Source of the DNA: Pseudovirgaria hyperparasitica
Lineage: Eukaryota
Direction: 5' to 3' (one strand)
Length of the DNA stretch: 64,000 nt
Assembly (NCBI GenBank): GCA_010093815.1
Contig: ML996565.1
Part shown: one piece after another, positions 34,104 through 52,200 of the stretch
How positions within the stretch are numbered: position 1 is the stretch's first letter
Layout of the letters: each line of letters begins with the position of its first letter
Program-made: the position numbers and the translations under genes
Notes under the pieces: generated by a model
What the model was told of the DNA's origin: nothing
Database searches by the model: none
What the model saw: the letters and a program-made list of their open reading frames with translations, nothing else

Positions 34104-35706
34104 ATGAGGCATGCCTTCGGAATGAGACCCAGCACCTCGACACCATCGCTCCGACTCGGCCAATGCCTGCTGCACGCTCGGGTTCCGAAGAGATGCTTCT
34201 CAGCCCTACACGCTCCGTCTTCTACGTCTTCACCACTTCCATCGGCTAGCTCACCATATCCAACTCGCCATCTCCGTACTGCGCACAGAAACATGGGACT
34301 GGAGACATCGATACGTCCCATCTCGACTGCAGGCGCTGCTGCCACCAGCATGGCACGCAGCAGCGCCCACAGACCTCATCGAGCATTCATTGCCCTCGGC
34401 AGCAATATGGGCGATCGCATCTCGTGGATCGAAAAGGCGTGCAATGCCATGGAGAGCACTCCAGACATCAAGATTCGACGCACGAGTAGCCTGTGGGAGA
34501 CGACAGCCATGTACGTGCTGGACCAGGAGAACTTTGTGAACGGAGCGTGCGAGGTGCGCCATATCAAAACATACCACACTCACCTTTGCGCACCACGTGA
34601 CTAACCCCGTCCAGATCGAAACCTCACTGGGCCCAATCCATCTGCTCGACCGTCTCCAGTCCATCGAGAACGACCTGGGCCGCGTCAAGGTCATCGACAA
34701 AGGCCCTCGCAATATCGACCTCGACATCCTCCTCTACGACGACAGGACCATCTCTCACCCCCGTCTCCAAGTCCCGCACGCGCTCATGCTCGAGCGCGAA
34801 TTCGTCCTCCGTCCTCTCTGCGAGCTCATCCCAGCATCCACCCTCCCTGGATCCCCATCCGGCACCACTCTATCCAACCATCTCGCAGCTCTCCCGGCCT
34901 CGCCCACGCCCCTATCCACAATCACCTCTCTAGCCCCCGGCATCCCCCCTATCGCCTCCCTCCACACCCACCGCAACACCCTCCTCATGTCCATCCTCAA
35001 CCTGACCCCAGACTCCTTCTCCAACGGCCCTTCTCCCCCCGCCCTCACCAACCCACTCGCCCTCGCAAACGCCGAGCTCGCCCGCCTCTCCCCCTTCCTC
35101 GACTCCCTCTCCGCCCTCCCCCCCAACATCGCCCTCAGCATCGACACCTTCCACGCCTCCGTCGCCGCCGCCGCCCTCGACGCCGGCATCCACATCATCA
35201 ACGACGTCTCCGCCGCCTCCCTCGACCCCGCCATGCTCCCCCTCGCCGCCTCCCGCCACTGCACCCTCATCCTCATGCACATGCGCGGCTCCCCCGCCAC
35301 AATGTCCAAACTGACCTCCTACCCGCACGGCGTCGTCCACGGCGTCGCCACCGAACTCGCCGCCCGCGTCGCCGCCGCCGAAGCAGCAGGCGTGCGTCGC
35401 TGGCGCATCGTGCTGGACCCGGGGCTCGGCTTCGCGAAGACGCCCGCCCAGAGCATCGAGCTCCTGCGTCGCTTGCCGGAGCTGCGCCGCTGGCCTGGGC
35501 TCGAGGGCTTGCCGTGGCTTGTTGGGCCCAGTCGGAAGGGCTTTGTGGGTGTTGTCACGGGCGAGAGGGATGCGGCGAGGCGTGAGTTTGGGACGGCGGC
35601 GGCGGTGAGTGCGTGTGTGGCGGGGGGCGCGGATGTGGTTAGGGTGCATGATACGGGGGAGATGGCGCGGGTGGTGCGGATGGCGGATGCGGTGTGGCGG
35701 TTTTGA
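34104..35706 (+). CDS. FOL1: Folate biosynthesis HPPK-DHPS fusion (Fol1-like, no DHNA domain), 1 intron; DHPS appears to have an internal deletion
   Basis: HPPK: AFIALGSNMGDR, FVNGAC, KGPRNIDLDILLY, PHALMLEREFVLRPL. DHPS: ILNLTPDSFS, SIDTF, IINDVS, LMHMRG, LDPGLGFAK, GPSRKGF, VRVHD. N-terminus resembles a mitochondrial presequence. Confidence 0.88.
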
Positions 35707-35929
35707 TGTGTGGTGAGACGGCCTGTATGAATTATATGTGTGTGTTTGTATTTGTTTGTATGTGCTATGGACGGTGGAGGTTCACGATAGAGGGAGGGGG
35801 TGTGGATGTATGTTTATATATTTATAGACCCCGGCCTCACGGCTCGCTTTTCAACAAGAGCCGTAGAATAGTATGTTAATATTCCCATCGGACATGTCAT
35901 TCCACAACCCCAGACCAAGATACCCCCCC

Positions 35930-37649
35930 TCACCCCTCCTCCTCCCTCCCCTCCACACGCACCACCCCTCCCCCCTCAACCCCGACCTCCACCCTCACCT
36001 TCCGCAAACTCGCCTCCACCGGCCTCCTCGCCTCAAACACCCTCCCCAACTCCTCAAGCGTATGCCCCGCCGTCTCGACAAAAAACCCCCACACAACCCC
36101 CATCTCCACCACAATCCACCCAATATACACCAGATACAACCGCCAGCCGATCCGCTCGATCCCCACGCTAATCCCATACGTATTGACCATCATAGCGACA
36201 TTCAAGAAGAGGAAATTGAGGCCGGAGCCTTTTGCGCGCGTGCGCGTCTCGAGACACTCGACGGCGTAGAGCGTCTGCAGCGGCGTCCAGCCCCAGGCGA
36301 AGAAGATGCCGAAGGCGTAGATGGAGACGATGGTGCCGTAGGCGAGGTCCGGGTTGTGTGGCGTGCGGGCGGTGAAGGCGGTGAGGAGGATGTAGGCGAC
36401 GAGGGCGCCGGCGAGGCCGCCGAGCAGCATTGTGCGGCGGCCGAGGCGGTCGAGCAGGGAGGCGCCGAGGATGGCGGCGAGCATGCTGAAGAGCGGGTTG
36501 ATGGCGGAGATGAGGAGTTGGGTGCTTGGATCGCGGATGCCGGCTTGGAGGACCATTTGGGGGAGGAAGTAGGAGACCACGTTGTTGCCGCTCCATTGGC
36601 CGAAGAAGGACATTGCGATGACGAGGGCGAGGCGGTAGCGGGCGGGGCGGGTGTTGTAGAGGGCGGAGAAGTCGTACCAGGGGGAGGAGTCGTGGGTGGT
36701 GGTGGCGGTGAGGTCGGCGGTGATTTCTTGGTATTGGAGCTGGACGATGGGCGAGGAGGGGTTGTTGTCCGGGGCGTGGTATTTGGCCATTACGGCGAGG
36801 GCTTCGGCGTGGCGGTTTTGCATGATGAGCCAGCGGGGGGATTCGGGGAAGAAGAGGACGAGGCTCATTGTTATGCCGGGGAGGATGCATTGGACGAGGG
36901 TCGGGAGGCGCCATGCCCAGGAGGAGTGGCCCAGGTGCAGGTTTGTGCCGTAGGTCGTCCAGCCGGCGAGGATGTTGCCTAGCCCTGTGTTTTTGTCAGT
37001 GGGGAAGGAGGGAAAGGGGAAAGGGGGGGGATGACTTGCACCAGAAGTTGTTGTACATGCCGGCCATGAAGCCGCGGTATGCGGGATGGGCGAGCTCGAC
37101 GGTGTACGTCGGTCCGGCGGCAGACGCGATGGAGGCGCCGAAGCCCAGGATGAACCGGCCGGCGATGAAGTGGCCGGTTCCGTGGGCTGTAACTTGAACG
37201 GCCGTGCCGACGAGGACAAGCGCGCACCCGACAAAGATGCACACGCGGCGACCATATCCGTCGGCGAAGAAGCCGCAGAACGGGAACGCGGCGATCTGGC
37301 CGAGATTGTAGACGATGAATATGATTCCCGTCGAGGATCCTGCGCCGCTAAGACCGAATGTCTTTTGGTACGACTCCATGGCGTTGATGGAGCCCATCAG
37401 GGAGGAATCTGGTCGTTGTAAGCGTTGTGTCGTGGTATCCTTCTTGCACTCACCGAACCCGTTCAGCGTCGAAACGAGGTAGCCAATTGTCATGATAAAG
37501 TACAACTTCAGCATGCCCTTGGACAATAGCTTGGGCGGTTGCGCCTCCACGGCCGCGGTCAGGGCAACGCTGTGCACCTGGATCTCCTTGGTTCGGCCAT
37601 CACCTTCGGCATCAACACGCTCATTGACCTCGAATGCCTTCTCTGCCAT
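35930..37649 (-). CDS. MFS sugar porter, lactose/cellodextrin permease type (Lac12/LacpA-like), 2 introns
   Basis: STLNGFDSSLMGSINAM, ADGYGRR, YTVELAHPAYRG, FFPESPRWL, FFGQWSGNNVVSY, LDRLGRR, GWTPLQTLYAVECL, ETAGHTLEEL. Confidence 0.88.
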
Positions 37650-38407
37650 GCTGACGATGCGAGCCTCTGTCTTTCGAAAGTGATGCTGAATTCCTGATGA
37701 CTGCCGAACCTGCCTTATGGTAACCCTGACGATGATTACACACCGAGAGTCACAGATTTGATCATTCAGGAGCCGACCGGGCCAGTCTATATATCCAGGC
37801 CACACACTCAAGCTTGGCATATAGCAGCCCGCAGCTGTACTACACCAAGACATTCAAGCGGTCTATGGCCACGGGATGCGTACGAGTAACGGAAACAGGA
37901 GCCAAGTCACGCCCAGACAAGTCTCGCCTCGGGTCACACATACTGGGCGCGGTGCCAGCGGCAGTCGTGATACCCATGATGTTCGACCAGTTGCGGATAT
38001 GTCACCCGCGGAAAAAGCCTATTGCTGACTTGCAGTTGGTCTGAGGATAAAGACCTACGGCTGGGATGAACGGATTGGCGTTCTGGGTCCGTTCTTGCAG
38101 CGACGTCGGAGGTCAGGGGCAACACGCTCTTACAGATGTTTGTGGAGCATCTTACGCCTCATATCATGCATGGCCTTGGACGAGGTGGAAGGTTTTGTAT
38201 CGTAGTCACACACGATATACCCGGCAGGACAGGGTGAAAGCGAAGCATGTATGAGAAGCGGAGATAGCTCCTTGCAGGCGGGGTTTACACTCCGCTTTGT
38301 TTGGGCCACGTGACACTTCCCCAGATTCACCACCTTCCAGAACATGTGTTTACCACTCGATCCCTCACTCTTGACACGCGAGGGACGCTGTATTGAGGCG
38401 TGATGCC

Positions 38408-38421
38408 TGAGTCATGAGTCA
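38408..38421 (+). promoter_or_regulatory. Tandem TGAGTCA-TGAGTCA (Gcn4/CpcA/AP-1-type sites) in the permease / beta-galactosidase divergent promoter
   Basis: Two adjacent exact matches to TGASTCA; function inferred only. Confidence 0.35.
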
Positions 38422-38773
38422 CAGCAGGCGTCCAATTGCCCCACTCACTGCGTGTCAGTAGTCAACATCAACGGCAAACACCCCGGAACGTCGCATCGGC
38501 CTAGCATCCCAGCAGAACGTACACGGCGCCCAGCTCGGTACATGCGCGCAATTGTCCCCGAGCACTCCAATCGTGCATACCTGGGTATGCAAGTTGTGTT
38601 GGCTCTTCACGGTATACCTGCCCCTGCGGGTCTATTGATCCGGCAAGAAGCCCGCGCCGGCCTCGAGACTCGAGCGTACTCGAAAGCGCTTGTACAAAAA
38701 GCCACCCTCACACGCATCTCACCAGCCCAGCCAAGAATCTATACCTTACAGACCAACCCCAATCTCCGCAGCC

Positions 38774-41700
38774 ATGTCATCTCAATCCGGCCACTTCCCG
38801 CCCGGTATCCCGGACTGGAACAACCTGAGCGTCCTGCACCGCAACACGCTCCCGCCACGCTCCTACTTCTTCCCCTTCCCAAGCGAGGCCGCAGCGCTCA
38901 GCCGCGAAATAACGCAGTCAGACGCGCTGAGCCTTAGCGGGACATGGAAATTCCACCACGCCCCGAGCCCGTACGAGGCGCCCGCAGGCTTCGAAGCTCC
39001 GGACTTTGACACGGCTGCGTGGAGCGATATCCAGGTGCCGGGTATGTGGCAGCTGCAGGGGTTCGGCAGACCGCACTACACGAATACAAACTACCATTTT
39101 CCGGTCGATCCGCCGAATGTGCCAGTGCAAGGGAACGAGACCGGGTGCTATGTGAGGGGGTTTGAGGTTCCGGAGCGCTGGAGGGGGTATCAGTTGAGGC
39201 TGCGCTTTGAGGGTGTTGATGCGGCGTTTCATGTTTATGTGAATGGCACTGAGGCTGGGTATCATCAGGGATCACGCAACCCTTCGGAGTTTGATGTTTC
39301 TGGGCTTGTGCGGAGCGGTATGAATAGGTTGGCTGTGCGAGTGTATCGCTTCTGTGATGGCTCGTATCTGGAGGATCAGGACCAATGGCGCACTTCGGGC
39401 ATCTTCCGTGATGTCTTTCTGATCGGCTTCACCCAGAACCGCATCGAGGACGTCCACATTCGCACCGACCTGGATGACAAGTACACCGATGCCGAGCTCA
39501 AGGCGTCATTCAGGCTCACCGGTACAGGAAAGCTGACCGTGCGATTTCTCGACTCCAACAAAGCAACTCTAGACTCGCAATCACTCGACGCATCTTCAGA
39601 CACCGAGGTGATTCTCAAAGTATCAAACCCGAAGAAGTGGACCGCCGAAACACCACACCTGTACTACCTTGCCGCCTCCTTCGGTGGCCAAACCCTCACC
39701 CAACAAATCGGCTTCCGCACCACATCCATCCAGAATGGCATCTTTACCGTCAACGGCCGCCGCATTGTCTTCCGCGGCGCAAATCGCCACGAGCACCACC
39801 CTATCCACGGCCGCGCCGTGCCCTATGACTTCATGAAGCAAGACCTCCTGATCATGAAGCGCCACAACCTCAACGCCGTGCGCACATCCCACCAGCCCAG
39901 CGACCCGCGCCTCTACGAGCTCGCCAACGAGCTGGGCCTCTGGGTCATGGACGAAGCTGACCTCGAATGCCACGGCTTCGCATCCGTCGCGGAGAACGCA
40001 TTCACGCCCGAGCAACGCAGCATGAGCTACGAAGCGCGCAAGGAGATCGCACATGCAGAGGCCGCGAAATGGACGTCCGACAATCCGCTGTGGGAGGATA
40101 GCTACGTAGATCGCGCCCGGCAGTTGGTTGTGCGGGACAAGAACCACCCGTGCGTGGTGATGTGGAGTCTGGGCAACGAGGCGTTCTACGGGCGTAACTT
40201 CCAGGCCATGTACGACTTCATCCGCGCATACGATGATACACGGGTCGTGCACTACGAAGGCGATACGCATGCTCAGACGGTTGATGTGTATAGTCAGATG
40301 TATCCCTCTGTGAACAGCATAGTCCGCGATTTCGGGCGCGCGGAGACGTTCGACAAGCCGCTTGTTCTGTGCGAGTTTATTCATGCTATGGGCAATGGAC
40401 CGGGAAATATCAAGGAGTACATCGACGCGTTCTATGCGTATCCGCGCTTGCAGGGCGGGTTTGTATGGGAGTGGGCGAACCACGGGATGGTGACGAAGAA
40501 CGAAGCTGGAGAGGAGTATTATGGCTATGGAGGTGATTTTGGCGAGGACGTACATGATGCGAATTTCGTCATGGATGGCGTGTTGTTCTCAGACCACGCA
40601 CCTGCGCCCGGGCTGGTCGAGTATGCGAAGGCGATTGAGCCGGTGCAGCTTGTAGAGGGGTCGACGGCGGATGATGTGCGGATTCTGAATCGGTATGACT
40701 TCCTGACGCTAGACCATCTGAAGGCGGAGGCGAAGTACAATGTCCACGGAGGAGACATCGTCGCCGGAGAAGTCGAAATTCCGAAGGACATCCGACCCGG
40801 CAAGTCCGCCTCCTTGCACCTCGCGGCGCTCATAACCGCGGCCCCGAAGGACACATTCGCGATCGAAATATCTTTTTTGCACAAATCACAACCATCATGG
40901 TCTCCATTACCCACGCACCGCGTTGCGTGGTTCCAGATCACCCTGTCTCTGCCTACTTTCTCACCTCAACCCTCGTTTTCATCCGCTGGCATTCACATGA
41001 CCCAGATAGGCAGCTCCCTCACCATCACCGCTAGTGCCGACCGCAAATACATATTTTCCCTTGCTACGGGTTTCCTTACGCAAATAACCAAAGATGACAC
41101 GAATGTTCTCGCCACCCCACCCGCACTCACATTCTACCGACCTCTGACCGACAATGACAGGCCGCAGGACGGCTGGCACTGGCTCGATAAACGTGTGCAT
41201 CAACTACGTGCGCGCACGACAGATGTGTCGTGGACAATAACGGATGATGGAGCAGAAGTCGTGGTCAAGAGCCGAGTCGCGCCACCGGTGCTTGCTTGGG
41301 GGTTTGTTGTTGTTACGACGTATAGTATTGTCAATCTAAAGGGCGACGATGAAGCTGGCTTGAAAATCGGAGTAAAAGCCGAGCCACACGGCGAACACCC
41401 TCCTGCCACACTACCCCGTATTGGGCTGTCATTCAGCATATATCCCGAATTCGACAAGACCGAATGGTTCGGCCGTGGCTCGGGTCCCAGTTACCGCGAC
41501 ATGAAACTCTCGCAAGCCATCGGATATCATCAACTTGCGGCGAAGGATCTGTGGGTGCCCTTTGAATATCCCCAGGAATCCGGAAATCGCACCGATGTCT
41601 CATATGTAGACTTCGTATCGAAGGCAACATCTTTGCGTGCGGTCTTTGAAGGCCAGACGGGAGACTTTAGCGCGTGTTACTACCGTGAGAAAGATGTCGA

Positions 41701-41866
41701 CGAGGCGCAGCATCCGTGGGAACTGGAGAGGAAGCGCACGCAGGATTTGAATGTGAGGCTTGATTGGGCGCATCATGGCTTGGGCACAGGGAGTTGTGGG
41801 CCGAAGACATTGGTAGAGTATGCGTTGACATACGGGCCTTTCGAGTACTCTCTGTGGCTGATTTAG
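38774..41866 (+). CDS. Intracellular GH2 beta-galactosidase (LacZ/Lac4/BgaD type), intronless, 1030 aa
   Basis: RFEGVDAAF, GSYLEDQDQWRTSGIFRDV, RGANRHEHHP, NAVRTSH, WSLGNE (acid/base), HYEG, LCEFIHAMGNGPG (nucleophile), GGFVWEW, PQESGNR, GLGTGSCGP; no signal peptide. Confidence 0.93.
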   Translation: MSSQSGHFPPGIPDWNNLSVLHRNTLPPRSYFFPFPSEAAALSREITQSDALSLSGTWKFHHAPSPYEAPAGFEAPDFDTAAWSDIQVPGMWQLQGFGRPHYTNTNYHFPVDPPNVPVQGNETGCYVRGFEVPERWRGYQLRLRFEGVDAAFHVYVNGTEAGYHQGSRNPSEFDVSGLVRSGMNRLAVRVYRFCDGSYLEDQDQWRTSGIFRDVFLIGFTQNRIEDVHIRTDLDDKYTDAELKASFRLTGTGKLTVRFLDSNKATLDSQSLDASSDTEVILKVSNPKKWTAETPHLYYLAASFGGQTLTQQIGFRTTSIQNGIFTVNGRRIVFRGANRHEHHPIHGRAVPYDFMKQDLLIMKRHNLNAVRTSHQPSDPRLYELANELGLWVMDEADLECHGFASVAENAFTPEQRSMSYEARKEIAHAEAAKWTSDNPLWEDSYVDRARQLVVRDKNHPCVVMWSLGNEAFYGRNFQAMYDFIRAYDDTRVVHYEGDTHAQTVDVYSQMYPSVNSIVRDFGRAETFDKPLVLCEFIHAMGNGPGNIKEYIDAFYAYPRLQGGFVWEWANHGMVTKNEAGEEYYGYGGDFGEDVHDANFVMDGVLFSDHAPAPGLVEYAKAIEPVQLVEGSTADDVRILNRYDFLTLDHLKAEAKYNVHGGDIVAGEVEIPKDIRPGKSASLHLAALITAAPKDTFAIEISFLHKSQPSWSPLPTHRVAWFQITLSLPTFSPQPSFSSAGIHMTQIGSSLTITASADRKYIFSLATGFLTQITKDDTNVLATPPALTFYRPLTDNDRPQDGWHWLDKRVHQLRARTTDVSWTITDDGAEVVVKSRVAPPVLAWGFVVVTTYSIVNLKGDDEAGLKIGVKAEPHGEHPPATLPRIGLSFSIYPEFDKTEWFGRGSGPSYRDMKLSQAIGYHQLAAKDLWVPFEYPQESGNRTDVSYVDFVSKATSLRAVFEGQTGDFSACYYREKDVDEAQHPWELERKRTQDLNVRLDWAHHGLGTGSCGPKTLVEYALTYGPFEYSLWLI

Positions 41867-41922
41867 TAACCCGTAGAGTATACTCGTCAGATTATAGGGA
41901 TTGCATTTAGGTCTTGCGGCTA

Positions 41923-44307
41923 TTACGATACCGGATTGGGGGTGCTGATGTTGTGCGATAGTAGGTATTGATCGATCGAGTTCTTGTCGTGTCAGTTCCC
42001 ATACAATACTACCAAGGCCTGCCATACGCACCCAGTCAAGTCGCTCATTCCCATCGAGTCTCAACACATAATCCAGGCTTCCTGCATCAGCAGGCTGGTG
42101 CACACTACAATCAAGCACCGGCATATCACCATCATCACCCTCGTCATGCCTCAGCATATGATCTGTCATTGCCATACTCAGCTCCATCATCGCTGACGGA
42201 CACTGCGTCTCTGCCAACTCCGCATTGATCGTCTGTAAACGCTCGGCAGACAATGAGCCTATGCCAGCGCCTGACCGTGCATTGCCTTCGTTGGACAGTT
42301 TGGTCAGCATTGCGGCGAGGACTTCGGTGGCGCGCTGTGCACCTCGGGTGGCAATCTTGCCGGAGTTGGCGTCAGACTTGGCTCGGTTGTGCCAGATGAA
42401 GTAACTAGAGCGGAGCATGCGGATTTTCTGGCGTAGTTCTTCGATGCTATTTCAACAATGTTAGTGACACTGGAGGGCCTATAGCGGGAAAGTTAGACGT
42501 ACGTTCGCGAGGGGGACATTGATACGTCAAGACATACGACCCTAATTTGATCATCAGCAGGAATATTGGAACGTCTCAGGAGTAGGAAAAGTGCTCACAT
42601 CGCAGCTAGAAGAAAGTCGTGCTGTATTAGGCCTGTCAAGACCCAGTCCTCGCGCTCGAGACGTCCGCCGAGCTGAGATTCATTGTGGTATTCATATTGA
42701 AGCTCTAGCACGCGGAGAGCGGCATTTCGAGCACGACCTTTGTACTCAAGGTATTCGTCTGGTAGACTTAGGAAGTCGCGATGCAGCACACACTTGGCTT
42801 TCAAGTAAAGGAGCTCAAGGAGCAAGCGTTGGACGATCATGAAGGGCTGATCCGTGAAGCTAGATGATTTTATGGGCCTTATTCGAAACCTCTGCGGAAA
42901 ACTCTCATGCACTTGGTCGAGTTCCATGTTTAGTGACTCGACGACCTGTACGAGACGCTCGAGGTCGCTCATGAGGACGACACGGAGAATCTTGCGAAAG
43001 ACAGCAGATATCCTGGCCTTGCATATCATGTATGCGACGTAGGTACAGTCGCTCGAGGAGCGAGATGGCGGTAGGGTAGCACTCAACTCGTCAAAGTCAT
43101 CGTCGTGAAGGTTGGAAGGAGGCTCGGCATCGAATTCGCCTTCGTGGATGACCGGTGGCATGCCGAGCTGGAGAGATGCTAGTAGGTCGAAGACTTCAAT
43201 GAAGTTCCACGTTCTGCGTCGCATCTCCCCCTGGAAAGGACTCAGATTGCTTCCCAACCAGCGGGGATCTCTGTGATAGCCCATGTTCTGTGCGAGACGT
43301 GTGACAAGGCCAAGATTAGTCCATATATCCGAATCCTGGTCAGTGGTAAACCAGTACTTCGAGTACGAGTGAATCAGGAGTGCTTCGACAGCATAGGATT
43401 TCTGCTTGAGATATTGCCCTGACACCAAGTATTTCCACGCCTTATCTGCATAAATAGCTGGTGCAGTCTTGTCCAGTAGGGTAGCAATCGGATCCTTTCT
43501 CGCAAGGGCAACTACAGAACCAAGACACAACATCGAACATAGAAGGCTGATCCATAGATGTGGTGTAGAAGATGGGTTCTCCCAGAACGCGTCGTACTCT
43601 CTGTGAAACTGGTTGGCATGGATAAACGAAACTGTCACAAATCTTGCATTGAAGTATGTCATCAGGAGTGTGTCCACGGTGGGCCGATCCGGGAGTTCGT
43701 CAACGATTCTTGAAGATGCTGGACTTGCGGTAAAGTCGGACGCTGGCTCTTGTATATCAGACAAAGACACAGCAGGAGTGCCTTCACTGAGCCCTCCGTC
43801 ATTCACATCAAGAAAAGCGCGTATCCCCTGAATACTCTCCAACACTGATCTCCAATTTGTAGAGCCTGCGTATCCTATATCGCCTCCGGCACCAGACCCC
43901 TGCTGACCTGCCATTAGATGAGCCTCGGACACTGGTGTTGAGGATATATGAGAGGATCCTGATGAACTAGTGTTGTTCGCATCATCATCTGGAGGTTCCG
44001 AGCGGGGTTGGATGAGCTTGCTGACGATACACTCTAATTCCTGTAGCCTTCTTGCAGCTTCACTTTTGCGGGAGACCGCCCGAGTTGCTTCATGCTTGTC
44101 TCTCGGCGTTGTGGGCGTAAAGCTGCATGATGAATCCATACTCCGTTTCGTGCAGCTATCACAAGGTTGCTTACGATCACATTTCGTTCTCCGAGTGCGA
44201 CAGTTGGAACATGACACCGCAAGCCGGTTCCTTTTGCTGACACGCGTGCGGTCATGATTGGGAACTGCAACACGAAATCTACTAGTCAAATCAGAGAACT
44301 TGGTCAT
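41923..44307 (-). CDS. Zn2Cys6 transcription factor with fungal-specific TF middle domain
   Basis: CSNCRTRRTKCDRKQPCDSC...C zinc cluster; AQNMGYHRDP and GEMRRRTW motifs. The 3' exons are inferred, with the last intron giving ...LDW|NSIDQYLL...PVS* and TAA at 41923-41925. Confidence 0.88.
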
Positions 44308-44684
44308 TGTTGGCAATTCTGAGGTATTCCGAATAGCACTCTGGTTGATGACAAATTAACGAGTGTATTATCGAAGGACAAGACTTGATGGTGGAAGGGA
44401 TCTCGGACGCCTCGAGACTGGCCACTGTCAGGCTGGTTCCTGTTTAGGTTTAGCGGTAGATAAGATGGATTGGTGAGCGGGCGGGCGGCTGTACACGGAA
44501 CGGAACTTTCTCGCTCTGCCTGACACAAATTCATCAGTGTATCAAACCGGTCATCGTCAGATCTATTGAAACTAGTCTCCGACTTGTGAACATACGATCA
44601 AAAGAACTGCTGTCTGAACAGTGGACCGGACGTGCTCGGTCTTTGCCTTGGTTCAATTCATTTTACGCGGTATCAAAGTCCAAG

Positions 44685-45563
44685 ATGAAGCTTTATGCTC
44701 TCGGAGATATACATCTCAGCTACAAGGCCAACATAGAAGCCCTGCAGGAATTAGAGCCGCATCCCGAAGACGCCATGATATTGTGTGGTGATGTAGGCGA
44801 GAGTGCCGAGCATCTCGAGATAGCATTCAAAGCTGCGACACAGAATTTCAAGCTCGTGTTCTGGGTGCCGGGAAATCATGAGTTGTACAGTCTACCATCA
44901 TCGAGCAAACTAAGAGGAGAAGCAAAATACAAAGAATGTGTCTGGATAGCGCGTAAGTATGGCATCCTGACGCCCGAAGACGACTTTTACCGTTGGGACG
45001 GCGAAGGTGGGCCAGCCATCATTTGCCCTATTTTCACCCTGTACGACTACAGCTTTAGACCGGCCCATATTAGCAGAGAGAATGCAGTCAAATGGGCAGA
45101 AGAAGCAGATACTGTGGCTACGGATGAGTTCCTTTTGCATCCAGATCCACATCCGACTCGAGATGCATGGTGCGAAGCTCTTGTGGCCAAGTTCGAAGAC
45201 AAATTAGAAGAAGCTGCAGCAGAAGGCGTTCCTCTGATCATCATCAACCACTGGCCCCTGAGACAAGATCTTGTTTACATTCCTCGAGCGCCGCGATTTA
45301 TAATATGGTGTGGCACCACCAAGACAGAGAATTGGCACACCAGATTCAACGCCAAGGTAGTCGTTTCCGGACATCTTCACGTTCCGAGGACAGACTGGAA
45401 ATCAGGCGTGAGATTCGAAGAGTGCAGTCTCGGGTATCCTCGACAATGGGAGCAGGTCAAAGCAAGCGGTAAAGACGTCAACGACCTGATAAGAGAGATT
45501 CTTCCAGGACCGCCGGTGCCAGAGTATGATTCTGCAGAGCCACAGTGGCGAAGATGGGGTTGA
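44685..45563 (+). CDS. Calcineurin-like metallophosphoesterase, PptH (phosphopantetheinyl hydrolase)-like, intronless, 292 aa
   Basis: Metal motifs GDIH, CGDVGE, VPGNHEL, NHWP, GHLH. Also GGPAIICPIFTLYDYSF, ATDEFLL.PDP.PTRDAWC, WCGTTKT..WHTRFNA and GVRFEECSLGYPRQW, which I recognise from actinobacterial PptH-type proteins. Confidence 0.85.
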   Translation: MKLYALGDIHLSYKANIEALQELEPHPEDAMILCGDVGESAEHLEIAFKAATQNFKLVFWVPGNHELYSLPSSSKLRGEAKYKECVWIARKYGILTPEDDFYRWDGEGGPAIICPIFTLYDYSFRPAHISRENAVKWAEEADTVATDEFLLHPDPHPTRDAWCEALVAKFEDKLEEAAAEGVPLIIINHWPLRQDLVYIPRAPRFIIWCGTTKTENWHTRFNAKVVVSGHLHVPRTDWKSGVRFEECSLGYPRQWEQVKASGKDVNDLIREILPGPPVPEYDSAEPQWRRWG

Positions 45564-46757
45564 AATTGTCAAATGGGCTACTTCGGTCTCGTTTGCATTT
45601 CGGTCTTGAGCTTGATGCTGGGACGACTCAATGGATTGAACGATGAATGGCTCTCTTCGTGCTGCCATCTTCTTAGCGCATTAGTAAAATGAAAGACGGC
45701 TTTACCTGACTCAACACCATGCTACGGCTGGCAGAGGTGTGATTACTGTTATCTGCTTCATTTCATTCTGCGATGACGAGTGTCGAAAGTAGGAAAGTTC
45801 ATGCTAGGATTTGGCACGTTGTAGTATAAGTGTAGCACAGCGAGGCTGGCATGGGGCCGCAGGAGAAGACGTGGGTGGGTGGCCGGGCGACAAGTGCTGA
45901 TTCTGCGGGGTAGCGTGATTCATCCCGTCTGTGTATTGCTATCTATGGACTCCCAACCGTCTTCATTTATCCAACTTCGCAATATCGTTGCCAGTCGTCA
46001 AAGAACGATGCACCTGATGACTTACAATGACGGCGATGCAGTCGAAGAAGGGTGTGTCGAAGCTCGATGGGTGACAAGCGCCGCAGTTCAACATCAGCTG
46101 AGTAGCTACTGGTGGGCACAACAGCAGCTCACAACACCACAATACACTCTCGCCTTGGTCTAGTGACGGCAGCGATCCGCATGTCTCATGCCGCTCCGGG
46201 CTTCATCCATCTTGCGCCTGATGGTACTATGTAGATGGTTGATGGACTGGCCGGTTCATGATGCACGACCGGGTGTTGTACTAGCTGGGTATAGCAGGTC
46301 TTGAAGCTGCATGCACATCACTCATCACCAATTCCCCCCTGAGTCGTCACAAGGTTTTCCTGTTTGGTATCCCGCTGCTGCATAATCCACTTCTCTCCAT
46401 CGAATATGCTCCCGCTACCTGGTAAATGCGGGGCTGCGTGATGCGGTACCCTTGGCTTGCTGTCGCCTGAACGGACTCGCGCCAGATATTATTCCCCGTC
46501 GTAGCATTATATAAACCTGCACAGATGCCTTCGACTGCGAGGACTCAAGGGAAATATTCTGACTCCGGGATTCTCTCTTGTGTAGAGAAAGGTATAGAAT
46601 CCCCACCGGTCTTCGATTTTTTTATGATGGCCAGCTAACGCCTCGAACTCCAGCCCCTGCCAGCCCCTTGTATTGAAGCATACATATACGACGGCTGAAC
46701 AAATAAAACCGAATTCTCCGAGGGAAAAGCACTTCTCCTCAGAGGAGATCCAACATC

Positions 46758-48804
46758 ATGCTTCCGAAGATAGGCGTTTTCGCGCCCTTACTGGCAGCAA
46801 TTGCGTTCGCGAACCCTTTTGGTCATAGTCAGGTATATGTTGCTCCAAGGCAAGTCTGGAATAACGTGAGTGGCTGATCCTATGAAACACCGCGTGCGCG
46901 ACACGCACGTTCTCTAGGTCACATATCGCTGAATTGATCTCAGGCTACGAAGTACGAGGTCAAGACTCCTCCTTTGACCACCAACTGGACATACACGATC
47001 GGGACCGATCCGTGGCAGGAATATCCGCGCCCGCAGCTGGAACGCTCCCAGTGGAAGAGCCTCAATGGGATCTGGAAATACGAAAATGCTTCCAGCCCAG
47101 ACGCCGTAAACTCACCACCGACTGATCTCGACAATGGTAGCGAGGTCATGATTCCGTCGTGCCTCGAGAGCGGGCTGTCTGGTATTCAGAGCAACACTAG
47201 CTTCGCGTCCTGGTTCCTAACCAATTTCGACGTGCCTTCAGACTGGAGCGGTGAGAAGGTATTGCTCAACTTTGGAGCGGTGGACTATGAAGCGACTGTG
47301 TTCATCGATGGCAAGCAAGCTGGCTTTCATCGCGGAGGCTACTTTGCGTTCACGATTGATATCACACCATATCTCAGCAATAACGGTTCCTTTGCTACCC
47401 GACAGAACGGGGCCCATGAACTGTAAGTCGCACTGCCGAAACTCAGAAATATAGGCTGATCATCGCAGGCTTGTATTTGTGCATGATCCCACCGATACTG
47501 CTATCATTCCGGTCGGAAAACAGACTACGTCGCCGTCTCACATCTTTTACACTCCCTGCAGTGGTATCTGGCAGCAGGTCTGGATCGAATCCGCCCCTGC
47601 GACCTGGGTGTCGCGCTTCGATGTTGCAGCTGGCATGGACGGCAAAGTCGACGTAAATGTCATCAGCATCCCCGAGGGAAGCGCTGAAGCCGTCGAGGTC
47701 GAAGTCAAGGACAAGGGCTCCGGCAAAGTCGTGGGCACTGGAAGCGGTACCTCAAACACCCCGTTCTCCTTCACCGTCAGCAGCCCAAACCTATGGTCGC
47801 CCAGCACACCCACACTCTACGACATCACTCTCAAGATGGGCAACGACGAGATTAGCAGCTACACTGGATTTCGTACAATCGAAAAGGGCGAAGTCAACGG
47901 CGTCCAGCGGCCCTTGCTGAACGGCAAATTCGAATTCCTCTTCGCCACCCTCGACCAAGGATACTGGCCCGACGGCATCTACACACCTCCCAACCGCGAA
48001 GCCATGATCTTCGACCTCCAAACCCTCAAAGACCTCGGCTTCAACGCCGTGCGCAAACACATCAAGATCGAAACCGCCCTCTTCTACCAAGCCTGCGACG
48101 CGCTCGGCCTCATGGTCATCCAAGACATGCCCTCCCTCCCCCCAAAAGGCGACTCCTTCCTCCCCAACCCGGACCAGCAATCCGAATGGGAGCGCCAACT
48201 CGTCCTCATGATCAACCAGCAGAAATCCTTCCCCTCCATCGTCACCTGGGTCATTTACAACGAGGGCTGGGGCCAGCTCTACGCCACCACAAACCCCGAA
48301 TTCAACCTCACATCCGTCATCCGCACCCTCGATCCCACCCGCCTCATCGACAGCACCTCCGGCTGGCGCGACCACGGCGCGGGCGACTTCCACGACAACC
48401 ACCACTACGCCGCCCCGCAATGCGGCACGCCCTTCTACTCCATCCTCAGCACGCCCTTCGACCCCTCGCGCATCGGCTTCCAGGGCGAGTTCGGCGGGCT
48501 CGGCCACAACGTCTCCGCTGACCATCTCTGGCTCGTCCCGCAGGCTGTCAACTCCATCAACCAGACGTACGAGATCAGTGCGGACCTGAAGACGTATAAT
48601 TATCGCGCGCATCGCTTGCTGGATGAGCTGCGTGAGCAGACTGAGCTGTTTGCTTGCTCGGGCGCGGTGTATACCCAGACTACGGATGTGGAGGGCGAGG
48701 TTAATGGCTTGTTGACGTATGATCGGCGGGTGCTGAGGCCGGATGTGGAGATGTGGAAGAAGGATATTGGGGCGCTGTATGATGCGGCGGCGGGGCGTGC
48801 GTAG
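46758..48804 (+). CDS. Secreted GH2 glycoside hydrolase, candidate beta-D-galactofuranosidase type, 2 introns
   Basis: Signal peptide MLPKIGVFAPLLAAIAFA; introns 46866-46963 and ~47423-47468. Motifs EYPRPQL, LNFGAVDY, TLDQGYWPDGIYTPP, VRKHIK, YNEGWGQ, QGEFGG, YTQTTDVEGEVNGLLTYDR. Confidence 0.85.
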
Positions 48805-49255
48805 GGGGGGAGGGGCTAGGTGGTATTTGAAAAAACTCGGACACATATTGGCGCTATTGGTTATGCTATTTCTAGTCTTGTCTAATACCTTAATCATTCT
48901 TCCACCTAATTATATATACACACAAACTGCTCATTCCGTCTCACTACCGTGCATGTATCAGCACGTGTACATAAATGCTACGTCGACATCATCTACTAAA
49001 TTAAGCCATAGTAGTATTAAATACGTGGACGTTCTGGATATGTATCCGTGACCGCACAGAGCTAACATCTGTCTGACGTGTGTCATTTGGAATCTAAATC
49101 TTATCTATGGGCTATTGGTTTCGATCATTATGTTCGGAGTCTTGTCGCTCTTGTCCGCAATACCGGTATGATTTCGAAGAAAGGCGCTAAACTTTTAACC
49201 GCGATAAGTACACTATAGTTGTTGCTTTACACAAAATTATGATCATTATCATTAC

Positions 49256-52200
49256 TCAGATCGGCTTCCTTCGCACCGCTCTCTCGCCGGCGCGGAAGAT
49301 ATCGTCGCGCTCTAGGCTCGGCGTCGGCACGTCGATGGCGCTTAGGCGTGAGCTCTCGTTACGGCCCGTGTCATGCGGACTCTCGCTGCGCACTGCCGTG
49401 TACGTGCCACTTTGCGTGGGACGGTGGGTTCGGTATGGCGAGTGCTCGGGGGAGGATGTTCCGGCGACAAGGGAGGTTGTAATGGGGCTGCGAGTGTGTG
49501 GATTTAAATCTGGGGTAGCGCGACCGTCTCTTGAAGGACGGGGATAGGGGTCGGGCGTGTTTCGACCGCTCAGCAGGGGCGCGTCGATGTCTGCGGCGGA
49601 TGATTTGCGCGGAGTATGCTGGGCGAGGATGGTCTGGCTGGGACGACGGCTGTCAGTGGACGTGGGGCGAGGACTGCCTTTGTATGGCACTTCGTCGATG
49701 CCCATGAAAGTGTTTGCCATTGTGGACGGTGTGCCTGGGCGGGACGCAGTCATGCTATCGCCGGGTCTACCGTATAGCTCGCCATCTCCACCGAACTGGT
49801 CTCTGAACTCTGCGCGGCGCTTGAAATTCTGGAAGTCGAGGTCGCCTTCTTGCACAAATTCGAACGGGACGGAGTTGGGACCGACGGGTATCCTCTCCGG
49901 TGCTTGGGTTGCATCGCCATTGTAGACGTCGCTGTATCCGAAAGAATCGGTGTGTAGGAAGCCTTGCCGAGAAGCAGAGCTGTGCGCCTCATGCTTGAGA
50001 ATCTCCTTCAGCATATGCTCTGATTTGGCATGCACCATCGGCGCAAGGAGTTTCTTGTACAACGCTGGATGACCAAATTTGACTGCAACGCGATCCTTTC
50101 GTCCTCCGGGTCGCTCGACATCAGTCGATTTCTCAAGGTCGTGTATTGAGGCGATAGAAACGTAGCGCATCTTATTGTCGAATGTATGGGACAAATACCA
50201 CTTGAAACCAAAGAGAAGGAAGGGTAACGGGATCATAGCGTAGAGCATGCCGGCGTTGGCGGCAGCATCGGATATGAAGGCTTGAGCACCAACACCCTGC
50301 GAGCCGACAATAAGAGCGACGACGGCGTTGGCCAAGAGAATTGCAAAAAGCATGCGGTTGACAATCGTACGCCAAAAAACGCCTCCTGACTCGTTCTTCG
50401 TGAAACAGATATACTGAAGCATGTACCTCTTAAAGTAAAGCTCAATTACAAGGTAAAATGCCGTGATGGGAAATATTAGAGGTTGCAGTACACCAAATAC
50501 CATGCCAACGGTTCCAATGAACATATAAGTGTTGTAATAACTGGCATAGTCGAAAGGTTGCGGTGCAGAGAGTGCGATCATCTGACGCGGTGTTGGATCT
50601 GAAAATTTGCGTCTAAACCATCTAACAATGAGAGGCCAAAGCTGGGCAATGTCGATGGCTGCACTTAAATTTTGCTGCAACTGGTAGGTGAGCCAGAAAG
50701 TAGAGACGTTACAGAGACCAGCCATAAAGTTTGTGAACGGATGCTGATGCTTGATCGCGTCCCACACACTGGCATCCTGGGCCCGGACGACTGCAGCGAC
50801 AAACTGAAAAGCCGATCCAAAAACGGAGAAGACAAATAAACTGTTGAATACGAAGAAGGCGTACAGACGACTGGCCACGTGACGCTCTCGGGAAGTCTTG
50901 GAGATATCTCCAGAGTGATTATACAGTCGACGAAAGAGGGTAGGTAAAGCCAAGAAGATGAGAAACTGGAAAAGAGGCGCGGTGATACCTTGAGCGATAC
51001 CCCAGGCAACAGGATGCGCATAAAGATTCGTTTGGAAACCTGACCACAGAATGCCAATGTGTGAAAAATTGGAAAGGAAGACCGACGACAGGATGTTTAG
51101 GGGGATATAGGCAACGGTCAGGAGGACCATCCACAAGCCATCCCAAAACATTCTCGTTCTTCTCGTCGACTTTGTCATAGCTAGGTTACGCCACAACAGG
51201 TCAGTAGGCTTTGGCGCCAACGTAATCGATTTTGCATCACCGCCAGCTTGTTGGGCGGCATAGGCAGTGGCGTGAGCATCCTCTATATGGGAATAGCTAG
51301 CGAAGCCATATGGCATTGAATTTCGCTTCTCTAGACTTTCACGAACGTGCTTTATCTGCACCTCGAGGCGACGGGCTCGGATTGACAGATAGTCAATTGC
51401 ATCGACCTTTGCTGGATATGCGTGTTGGTCATCCTTGTATGGCTTGATCATGGGTCTGGAAGGTGGCAGTCGATCAGGATTCCTTAGGTATCGAGCAAGA
51501 ACAGCCTCAAGTCGAATGATTGTCTTGTCATGCTGGTCGATCAGAGTTGGAAGCTCTTTGACGTTCCTCGCGACGGAAGCACGAGGGATTTCGCCAGTGT
51601 CCTTGATAGAAGATGCAATACGAGCTACGCCTTCGTCTGTCCGTGTTGCTTGAGGAAGATGGCGCACGAGTAGGGTACGTGAATGTAGACTGTTGCGGTA
51701 CTCGCTGGTGCGGAAGTAAGCTCTTCGTAATCCAAGTACTGCTCTGTAATTATGATAGATGAAGCCGCAGACAATGGCTTCAAAAAGGTAGGCAATGACG
51801 ACCCACGCCCAGAACGTTGTTCCAAAAATGTACTGCGGCGTAAGTTTGAGTAACGTGGCAACATCGGCATAGCTATCATATGGATGTTGACCACCAATAG
51901 TGGTAATAGGAATCAGTAGTGCACAGCCGATGACGGTGAAGCAAAAGAATATATTCCGAAGCATGCGCAGAAAGCGTAGTAGGACGACAGCATCCAGACC
52001 AATCCGCTCTACGAGATCCTCCTCTTGCACTTTTACGACCGCACGAGTCCATGAAAAGTAAGTCCGATCCAGGGTGGGCGGAGTACGCTTGGAGTCGGCA
52101 TGCTTGGCTCGAGGAGCATAGATGGCAGAATTTTTTGGGCGGAATAACACAAAGGCACCGAAGAGAAGGCCTGATACGGCAAAGGCCCACACGAGCGAAG

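Follow-up and report, generated by a model that had tools for sequence, protein, structure and literature searches.

Within a 64,000-nucleotide stretch of contig ML996565.1 from the fungus Pseudovirgaria hyperparasitica (GenBank assembly GCA_010093815.1; hereafter the window), we examined an intronless gene on the plus strand at 44685..45563, and our analysis supports its 292-amino-acid product as a specific full-length homologue of Mycobacterium tuberculosis PptH (Rv2795c), beyond a generic phosphoesterase. By analogy with the mycobacterial enzyme, we consider it probable, if well short of assured, that the gene encodes a cytosolic two-metal hydrolase of the PptH type, which would remove 4'-phosphopantetheine (Ppant) from holo carrier proteins and reset them to the apo form; its substrate, location and role we infer.

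The protein is read from an uninterrupted ATG-to-stop frame under the standard code. Its start codon is the first ATG in frame, and the N-termini of the 292-residue fungal relatives share the same alignment column. A Pfam scan placed Metallophos PF00149 over residues 1-234 (E 2.1e-15) and found only Metallophos families in the protein, PF00149 and PF12850. An NCBIfam scan, in a collection without a PptH-specific model, returned nothing above cut-off, and its best match scored 31 bits where 148 were required. The original prediction had described an intronless 292-residue metallophosphoesterase with intact metal ligands, a description with which the reading frame, the Pfam match, the invariance of the ligands and the joint-free contigs presented below all agree.

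Sequence comparison with proteins of known structure singled out one family. When the protein was searched with phmmer against the PDB chains (177,635 sequences), chain 6unc_A was recovered at E 6.4e-70 with query residues 3-277 aligned to chain residues 20-291, and the second-best chain reached only E 0.14. Every sequence block that the original prediction had listed as typical of M. tuberculosis PptH (WVPGNHEL, GGPA..YDYSF, VATDEFLL..WC, WCGTTKT..WH and GHLH.PRT..GVRFEE.S.GYPR.W) lies within the printed 6unc_A alignment. By BLASTP, the mycobacterial-type relative P0145 was 40% identical (E 5e-65).

We then compared folds, using an alignment of 42 sequences (18 fungal and 24 bacterial or unnamed, hand-chosen from several searches and drawn from both subfamilies of the family; alignment A1) to build an AlphaFold (AF2) model, which was searched against the PDB with Foldseek. 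The model attained a mean predicted local distance difference test score (pLDDT) of 95.4 and a predicted template modelling (TM) score of 0.93. Chains of 6UNC, titled PptH, superposed at TM 0.85-0.92 with a root-mean-square deviation (rmsd) of 1.7-2.4 A and 41-43% identity, and the next structures (Mre11, Rv0805, GpdQ, LpxH and purple acid phosphatases) came at E 1.5e-6 or worse with TM at most 0.51-0.53. Since the high TM score is reached with 6UNC alone, the PptH-specific architecture is present besides the common core. The proposed match to Rv2795c is therefore borne out in both sequence and fold, and generic phosphoesterases, which would have undone it had they been the closest relatives, proved far weaker in both. 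Within the same model strand 1 begins at residue 3; because the protein opens directly with this strand, a targeting peptide could not be accommodated ahead of it. The C-terminal tail is modelled at pLDDT 72-85, with a short strand at residues 284-288.

The active site is complete. The metal-ligand and catalytic residues D8, H10, D36, N64, H65, H189, H230 and H232 are invariant in all 42 sequences of alignment A1, as are G35, G63 and G229. Invariance extends to positions that are specific to the family, namely Y82, P97, E98, D99, F117, Y120, D121, D147, P155, W162, C163, W208, G210, W217, E246, S248 and G250, several of which fall in an insert (residues 97-164) that is absent from generic metallophosphoesterases. 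According to the study of the M. tuberculosis enzyme that we draw on throughout, PptH has a Mn-Fe centre and its H246N form is inactive (Pandey 2021, PMC8557913). The GHLH motif of P0145 occupies residues 245-248 and aligns with residues 229-232 of the fungal protein, so that, by transfer of the P0145 numbering, H230 is most likely the counterpart of H246; both GHLH histidines are conserved whichever numbering applies. The two-metal centre of the fungal protein is probably Mn/Fe. The features of sequence and structure that mark the PptH family are all found in the protein (full-length homology, the fold, the complete binuclear ligand set with the catalytic histidine, and the H246 counterpart), and its accessory hallmark, linkage or fusion to a phosphopantetheinyl transferase (PPTase), is absent within the window.

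That hallmark is present in some bacterial relatives. In 13 of 25 longer relatives, domains of Sfp-type PPTases (PF01648/PF17837) are fused C-terminal to the PptH-like domain; one such protein, P0310, 'Tmn23 [Streptomyces sp.]', has Metallophos at 7-241, 4PPT_N at 329-396 and ACPS at 403-480, and P0191 combines the PptH-like domain with a PPTase N-terminal domain. Unfused genes can be neighbours instead. At a Bdellovibrionales locus (L002) a type II thioesterase gene is followed by the PptH-like gene and then by an overlapping PPTase gene, and at two loci of Hyphomicrobium type (L003 and L007) the PptH-like gene is flanked by genes for a PPTase, a thioesterase, a ketosynthase, a 3-hydroxy-3-methylglutaryl-coenzyme A synthase and a cytochrome P450. 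In M. tuberculosis itself Rv2795c adjoins pptT, Rv2794c (Pandey 2021, PMC8557913). Bacterial fusions and neighbours thus tie the PptH family to the priming of carrier proteins, though not universally.

Taking these observations with the known activity of PptH, we propose that a metal-activated water would attack the phosphodiester between Ppant and the conserved serine of a carrier protein. The substrates would be holo acyl carrier protein (ACP) or peptidyl carrier protein (PCP) domains of fatty acid synthases (FAS), polyketide synthases (PKS), nonribosomal peptide synthetases (NRPS) or Lys2-type reductases; free or acylated Ppant would be released and the carrier would return to the apo form, in opposition to an Sfp-type PPTase. 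A cytosolic location is suggested by the absence of room for a targeting peptide, and the physiological role may lie in the resetting, editing or recycling of carrier proteins. M. tuberculosis PptH strips Ppant from AcpM, from the ACP of PKS13 and from foreign FAS and NRPS carriers, and its range extends to FAS, PKS and NRPS carriers from other species (Pandey 2021, PMC8557913). Because the mycobacterial enzyme takes such foreign carriers, action on fungal ones is plausible.

Several points weigh against this assignment. By the account of the mycobacterial study cited here, pptH is dispensable in M. tuberculosis, its physiological role there is unknown, and small-molecule substrates could not be excluded (Pandey 2021, PMC8557913). 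The M. tuberculosis enzyme is the only family member with a biochemical assay, the fungal protein is just 40-43% identical to it, and the fungal clade forms part of the other major subfamily, with its bacterial sister placed at an ultrafast bootstrap (UFBoot) value of only 44-53 in trees that are unrooted. An adjacent PPTase gene is absent from the Nisaea-type loci (L004, L005, L006, L008 and L009), from a short Aminicenantes contig and from genomes G157, G396 and G196, whose PPTases are on contigs other than that of the PptH-like gene; on the side of the tree that holds the fungi, PPTase adjacency occurs in two of seven independent non-actinobacterial lineages. Within the window, we scanned 33 of the 40 frames of at least 200 residues for domains (leaving aside the target and six frames nested in longer ones) and found no PKS, NRPS, FAS, carrier-protein or PPTase (PF01648) domain among them, and the neighbours of the gene point to sugar use.

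A more specific version of the hydrolase assignment, which we put forward tentatively, is that the fungal clade comprises proofreading or resetting enzymes that remove free or stalled acyl-phosphopantetheine arms from FAS, PKS, NRPS and Lys2 carriers. If this holds, the holo/apo balance of secondary-metabolite megasynthases would be set by fungal PptH, and pantetheine-linked shunt products, for example that of a thioesterase-less fungal PKS, would be accounted for (Liu 2026, PMC13476535). For the pantetheine-linked PKS product made in yeast, an 'elusive AcpH-like isoenzyme' has been invoked, and that report states that an AcpH homologue was not found (Liu 2026, PMC13476535).

The fungal clade might instead keep the family and the fold and cleave a small phosphodiester or pyrophosphate, such as coenzyme A (CoA), dephospho-CoA, free acyl-phosphopantetheine, nucleotides or cyclic nucleotides, in place of protein-bound Ppant. 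We regard this as unlikely. Metallophosphoesterases do switch substrate readily, and M. tuberculosis PptH hydrolyses bis(p-nitrophenyl) phosphate (bis-pNPP), but poorly, with a Km of 17.8 mM (Pandey 2021, PMC8557913). Many metagenome homologues carry the automatic name 'cAMP phosphodiesterase CpdA', yet the CpdA model NF008359 scored the fungal protein at 13.7 bits (E 0.034) against a cut-off of 225, and the folds of Rv0805, GpdQ and LpxH matched it only at TM 0.35-0.53. The proposal of a small substrate also draws on the absence of a PPTase neighbour at most non-actinobacterial loci, but the PPTase fusions and operons argue for protein-bound Ppant, and the family-specific residues are invariant in both subfamilies. 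One locus offers a further point in its favour. In genome G196 a gene for a 196-residue PF02441 flavoprotein (L016:826-1413, minus strand) directly adjoins the PptH-like gene, and PF02441 presumably includes both phosphopantothenoylcysteine decarboxylase, of the CoA pathway, and UbiX-type enzymes.

Comparison with characterised systems places the protein closest to M. tuberculosis PptH (6UNC), with which it shares full-length homology, the fold with its family-specific insert, an identical metal-ligand set and a histidine at the H246 position. The two differ in subfamily and sequence, in the eukaryotic host and fungus-specific C-terminal tail of the former, in the lack of a PPTase beside the fungal gene, and in that activity has been assayed for the M. 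tuberculosis enzyme alone. Actinobacterial PptH-PPTase fusions (for example Tmn23, P0310, and P0313) have a homologous N-terminal PptH-like domain, 45% identical over 93-99% of the query, but carry their own C-terminal Sfp-type PPTase (4PPT_N and ACPS), whereas the fungal protein stands alone and the single long fungal form, P0308, has no PPTase. The class III cAMP phosphodiesterases and related enzymes CpdA, Rv0805 and GpdQ share the superfamily core and metal motifs but not the PptH-specific insert, and those compared superposed at TM 0.42-0.53 with an rmsd of 7-12 A; on the NF008359 score and the Rv0805 superposition (TM 0.42-0.53), the protein does not belong to the CpdA or class III cyclic-nucleotide phosphodiesterases. 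AcpH of E. coli and Pseudomonas (EC 3.1.4.14, HD-family) catalyses the same proposed reaction, is likewise metal-dependent and has a broad carrier range, and is described as not homologous to PptH (Pandey 2021, PMC8557913). Because Pfam detects nothing beyond PF00149 and PF12850, the fungal protein is not a member of the AcpH (HD) family; with its unrelated fold and sequence, it would be an analogue of AcpH and not a homologue.

To our knowledge, removal of Ppant is the only way to turn a carrier protein back off, and genes for this step are known only from bacteria (AcpH and M. tuberculosis PptH); we know of no eukaryotic gene for EC 3.1.4.14. Our literature search, which reached neither subscription journals nor bioRxiv supplements, found no paper on a fungal enzyme of the PptH kind, in keeping with the earlier statement that no such activity was known to have been characterised in fungi, and the mycobacterial study remarks that PptH 'appears to be limited to mycobacteria' (Pandey 2021, PMC8557913). 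The homology has not gone wholly unnoticed, as one NCBI record is already labelled '[Acyl-carrier-protein] phosphodiesterase PptH [Exophiala dermatitidis]'. With the PptH name thus assigned to a fungal record by an annotation pipeline, we regard the protein as an uncharacterised representative of an established family, not as a new kind of enzyme. Should the fungal enzymes share the activity, fungi with abundant PKS and NRPS would possess an unstudied step of post-translational control or editing on their megasynthases, which would be relevant to natural-product yields, heterologous expression and pantetheine-carrying shunt products and would provide a new handle to engineer or silence fungal natural-product pathways.

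A word-indexed protein search returned 7432 proteins at E<=1e-3 among 8000 candidates scored. The best 119 non-self matches were 57-74% identical over 93-100% of the query, and 58 of them carry an organism name; all 58 are assigned to fungi, as we take these names, with no other eukaryotes among them. Most belong to Xylariales, and Diaporthales, Helotiales, several Dothideomycete orders, Chaetothyriales and one basidiomycete (Mycena venus) are also represented, so that the named matches span at least four ascomycete classes and dozens of ascomycete genomes, the closest relatives being 62-74% identical. Four of the fungal NCBI records (P0007, P0030, P0081 and P0093) are named 'transposase', evidently a propagated mis-annotation. 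When 1.84 billion representatives were searched exhaustively, 1129 matched at E<=1e-3; the number fell to 489 at E<=1e-10 and to 128 at E<=1e-30. Of 401 genomes sampled from the phylum to which one bacterial carrier belongs, four had a match at E<=1e-30. Scans of genome contigs and of metagenome contigs yielded six loci and three loci (the latter at 47-51% identity), respectively, all bacterial or bacteria-like, and the nearest Protein Atlas clusters, all of bacterial metallophosphoesterases, are 92-100% Bacteria. The PptH family is therefore rare and patchy in bacteria too; it is compact but crosses phyla, with a well-supported fungal branch.

For phylogenetic analysis we assembled 67 rows, comprising 21 labelled fungal rows spread over orders, fusions cut to the PptH-like domain, unnamed representatives, and named Acidobacteriota, Myxococcota, Alphaproteobacteria, Bdellovibrionota, Aminicenantes and actinobacterial rows; the set excluded the partial locus L009 along with hundreds of near-duplicates. 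Two trees, both unrooted, were computed on the same 294 columns, a quick posterior mean site frequency (PMSF) tree and an LG+F+G4 tree with 1000 ultrafast bootstraps. In the PMSF tree the fungi and one unnamed metagenome protein formed a single clade with a Shimodaira-Hasegawa-like approximate likelihood ratio test (SH-aLRT) value of 100, inside a 45-row group (support 90) with non-actinobacterial rows, and the mycobacterial-type protein and the Streptomyces fusions fell in a separate group (support 99). The LG+F+G4 tree recovered the fungal split at UFBoot 100 and a 20-row set containing all four actinobacterial rows and no fungus at UFBoot 95. Pairwise identities run the same way, at 44-52% to proteins of Acidobacteriota, Myxococcota, Alphaproteobacteria and Bdellovibrionota and at about 37-45% to the other group.

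From these sequences, a single old bacterial transfer is the most likely source of the fungal clade, with a donor that was probably non-actinobacterial, the direction and number of transfers being what we infer; vertical descent with some irregularities, and acquisition of a fungal base composition, would have followed. The original prediction had raised a possible bacterial origin for a fungal homologue of actinobacterial PptH. Such an origin is likely, given that the fungi are monophyletic among bacteria, and the fungi are not closest to the actinobacterial enzymes. If the transfer is real, the gene would be a clean example of a bacterial gene turned into a stable, transcribed fungal one. 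One row departs from the expected order: P0065 (Mycena venus, 66% identity, on a 3.0-Mb contig) nests within the Xylariales rows at UFBoot 91, which points to passage of the gene between fungi or to mis-assignment of the contig.

Alternatively, the fungal clade would be an ancient eukaryotic gene, inherited vertically or derived from the mitochondrion and lost many times, an origin that we judge improbable. The root of the unrooted trees may lie on the fungal branch, but under midpoint rooting the fungi fall inside the non-actinobacterial group instead of alongside it. Some of the closest copies are alphaproteobacterial, Magnetospirillum reaching 52%, yet identities of 44-52% to bacteria are high for a split that predates eukaryotes. 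The fully fungal composition of the gene and the spread of the clade over at least four ascomycete classes would also suit vertical inheritance, but the family is overwhelmingly bacterial, as the make-up of the nearest Atlas clusters illustrates, and no eukaryote other than fungi occurs among the organism-named rows of the best 119 non-self matches. Transfer from a bacterium remains the origin that we prefer.

To examine transcription, contigs of two public sequencing runs (X1 and X2, one sample and one study, neither recorded as RNA) were compared with window positions 35500-50500. The contigs are 100% identical to the window apart from eight short skips of 45-78 nt in neighbouring genes, whose ends read CT..AC in four (minus-strand genes), GT..AG in three (the plus-strand gene of glycoside hydrolase family 2, GH2) and non-canonical CC..TG in one (36983-37039). 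As these skips are spliced introns, the contigs derive from RNA; they show the presence of a transcript and not its level or ends. X1 record 1 spans 42598-46589 and crosses the PptH-like open reading frame (ORF) without a joint, as does a contig of X2 (Table 1), which supports the gene as transcribed and intronless. Coverage by X2 contigs stops at 44398 and resumes with the following contig at 44505, both within the intergenic region shared with the divergent Zn2Cys6 gene. Bacterial contamination of the assembly, suggested by the lack of an intron and the bacterial relatives, is refuted by flanking fungal genes with spliceosomal introns, by the single spliced contig running from the Zn2Cys6 gene through the ORF, by the record of the protein on a 3.4-Mb contig, by a GC content (0.49-0.50) equal to that of the neighbouring genes, and by close relatives in so many other fungal genomes.

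Table 1. Features of the PptH-like gene and its surroundings; positions are those of the window.
Feature	Position	Strand	Basis or remark
PptH-type metallophosphoesterase coding sequence, stop codon included, intronless	44685..45563	+	ORF list and translation, Pfam PF00149, 6UNC match, unbroken contigs
Motif I, D8-I-H10 (GDxH), metal ligands	44706..44714	+	D8 and H10 invariant in 42/42; coordinates from ORF start
Motif II, G35-D36, bridging Asp	44787..44792	+	Invariant in A1
Motif III, G63-N64-H65 (GNHE)	44871..44879	+	Invariant in A1; inside the WVPGNHEL block common with 6UNC
Family-specific insert, residues 97-164 (TPED, YDYSF, TDE and WC blocks), between motifs III and IV	44973..45176	+	
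Motif IV, H189 (NH)	45249..45251	+	Invariant in A1
Motifs V and VI, G229-H230-L231-H232 (GHLH)	45369..45380	+	G229, H230 and H232 invariant in A1
Fungus-specific C-terminal tail (PGPP...QWRRWG)	45507..45560	+	Fungal rows of A1; absent or different in bacterial rows
Stretch with unbroken spliced (RNA-like) contig holding the whole ORF	44505..46589	+	X2 record 5
Intergenic region common to the divergent Zn2Cys6 gene, 377 bp; presumed bidirectional promoter and 5' untranslated region	44308..44684		Promoter role presumed
Zn2Cys6 factor, divergent from the PptH-like gene; ORF start at 44307	42595-44307	-	Domain scan
GH2 beta-galactosidase	38639-41866	+	Domain scan
Major facilitator superfamily (MFS) sugar transporter	35933-37853	-	Domain scan
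Second GH2 gene	47455-48801	+	Domain scan
Eight introns	36983-37039, 37408-37454, 41982-42032, 42446-42503, 42540-42598, 46589-46652, 46865-46944, 47422-47469		Spliced contigs

The immediate neighbours of the gene (Table 1) do not encode carrier-protein enzymes. The proposed link to PKS, NRPS and FAS carrier domains consequently finds no backing at the locus, where GH2 enzymes, a sugar transporter and a Zn2Cys6 factor surround the gene, and a secondary-metabolite role receives no support from it. Positions 35933-48801 resemble a galactoside-utilisation cluster, with the PptH-like gene within or beside it. The gene could accordingly serve sugar use, under control of the divergent Zn2Cys6 factor, with the protein hydrolysing a sugar-phosphate diester and carriers uninvolved. 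The GH2 beta-galactosidase, the MFS sugar transporter, the second GH2 gene and the Zn2Cys6 factor with its shared 377-bp intergenic region would fit this arrangement, as would the occurrence of the PptH-like gene and these neighbours in the same spliced contigs, but nothing among the relatives of the protein points to sugars and adjacency in a fungal genome is by itself weak evidence; we consider it very improbable. A carrier-directed hydrolase of the PptH type stays the assignment that we favour for the gene.

The spliced contigs also refine the neighbouring gene models, extending the Zn2Cys6 gene at its 3' end via small exons to about 41600 and placing the beginning of the downstream GH2 gene before 46589. 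Farther out, the window encodes a PHM7/RSN1 channel, a histone deacetylase, an NDT80-type factor and folate-synthesis domains.

Fusions other than those with PPTases comprise five with HSP90-type domains and one each with a histidine kinase, an ABC-transporter protein and an MFS transporter. In the first group (P0322, P0324, P0329, P0330 and P0331) a chaperone of HSP90/HtpG type lies N-terminal to the PptH-like domain, as in P0322, where HSP90 spans 232-632 and Metallophos 650-884. The MFS link recurs in bacteria, both as the 825-residue MFS-PptH fusion P0146 and as adjoining MFS_3 or MFS genes at L006:4727-5977, L015:186-1484 and L016:2-523. Because Ppant released in E. coli is excreted (Pandey 2021, PMC8557913), a pairing of hydrolase and exporter is conceivable. 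The long fungal form P0308 (Annulohypoxylon maeteangense, 1845 residues) carries its PptH-like domain at 1548-1787, after 1547 residues that hold no Pfam domain, and is probably a merged gene model. Three further relatives of 363-404 residues (P0122, P0124 and P0130; 50-63% identity) align with the query piecewise, over two or three stretches, a pattern that read-through of in-frame introns in eukaryotic contigs would produce; in that case introns have been gained by some eukaryotic orthologues.

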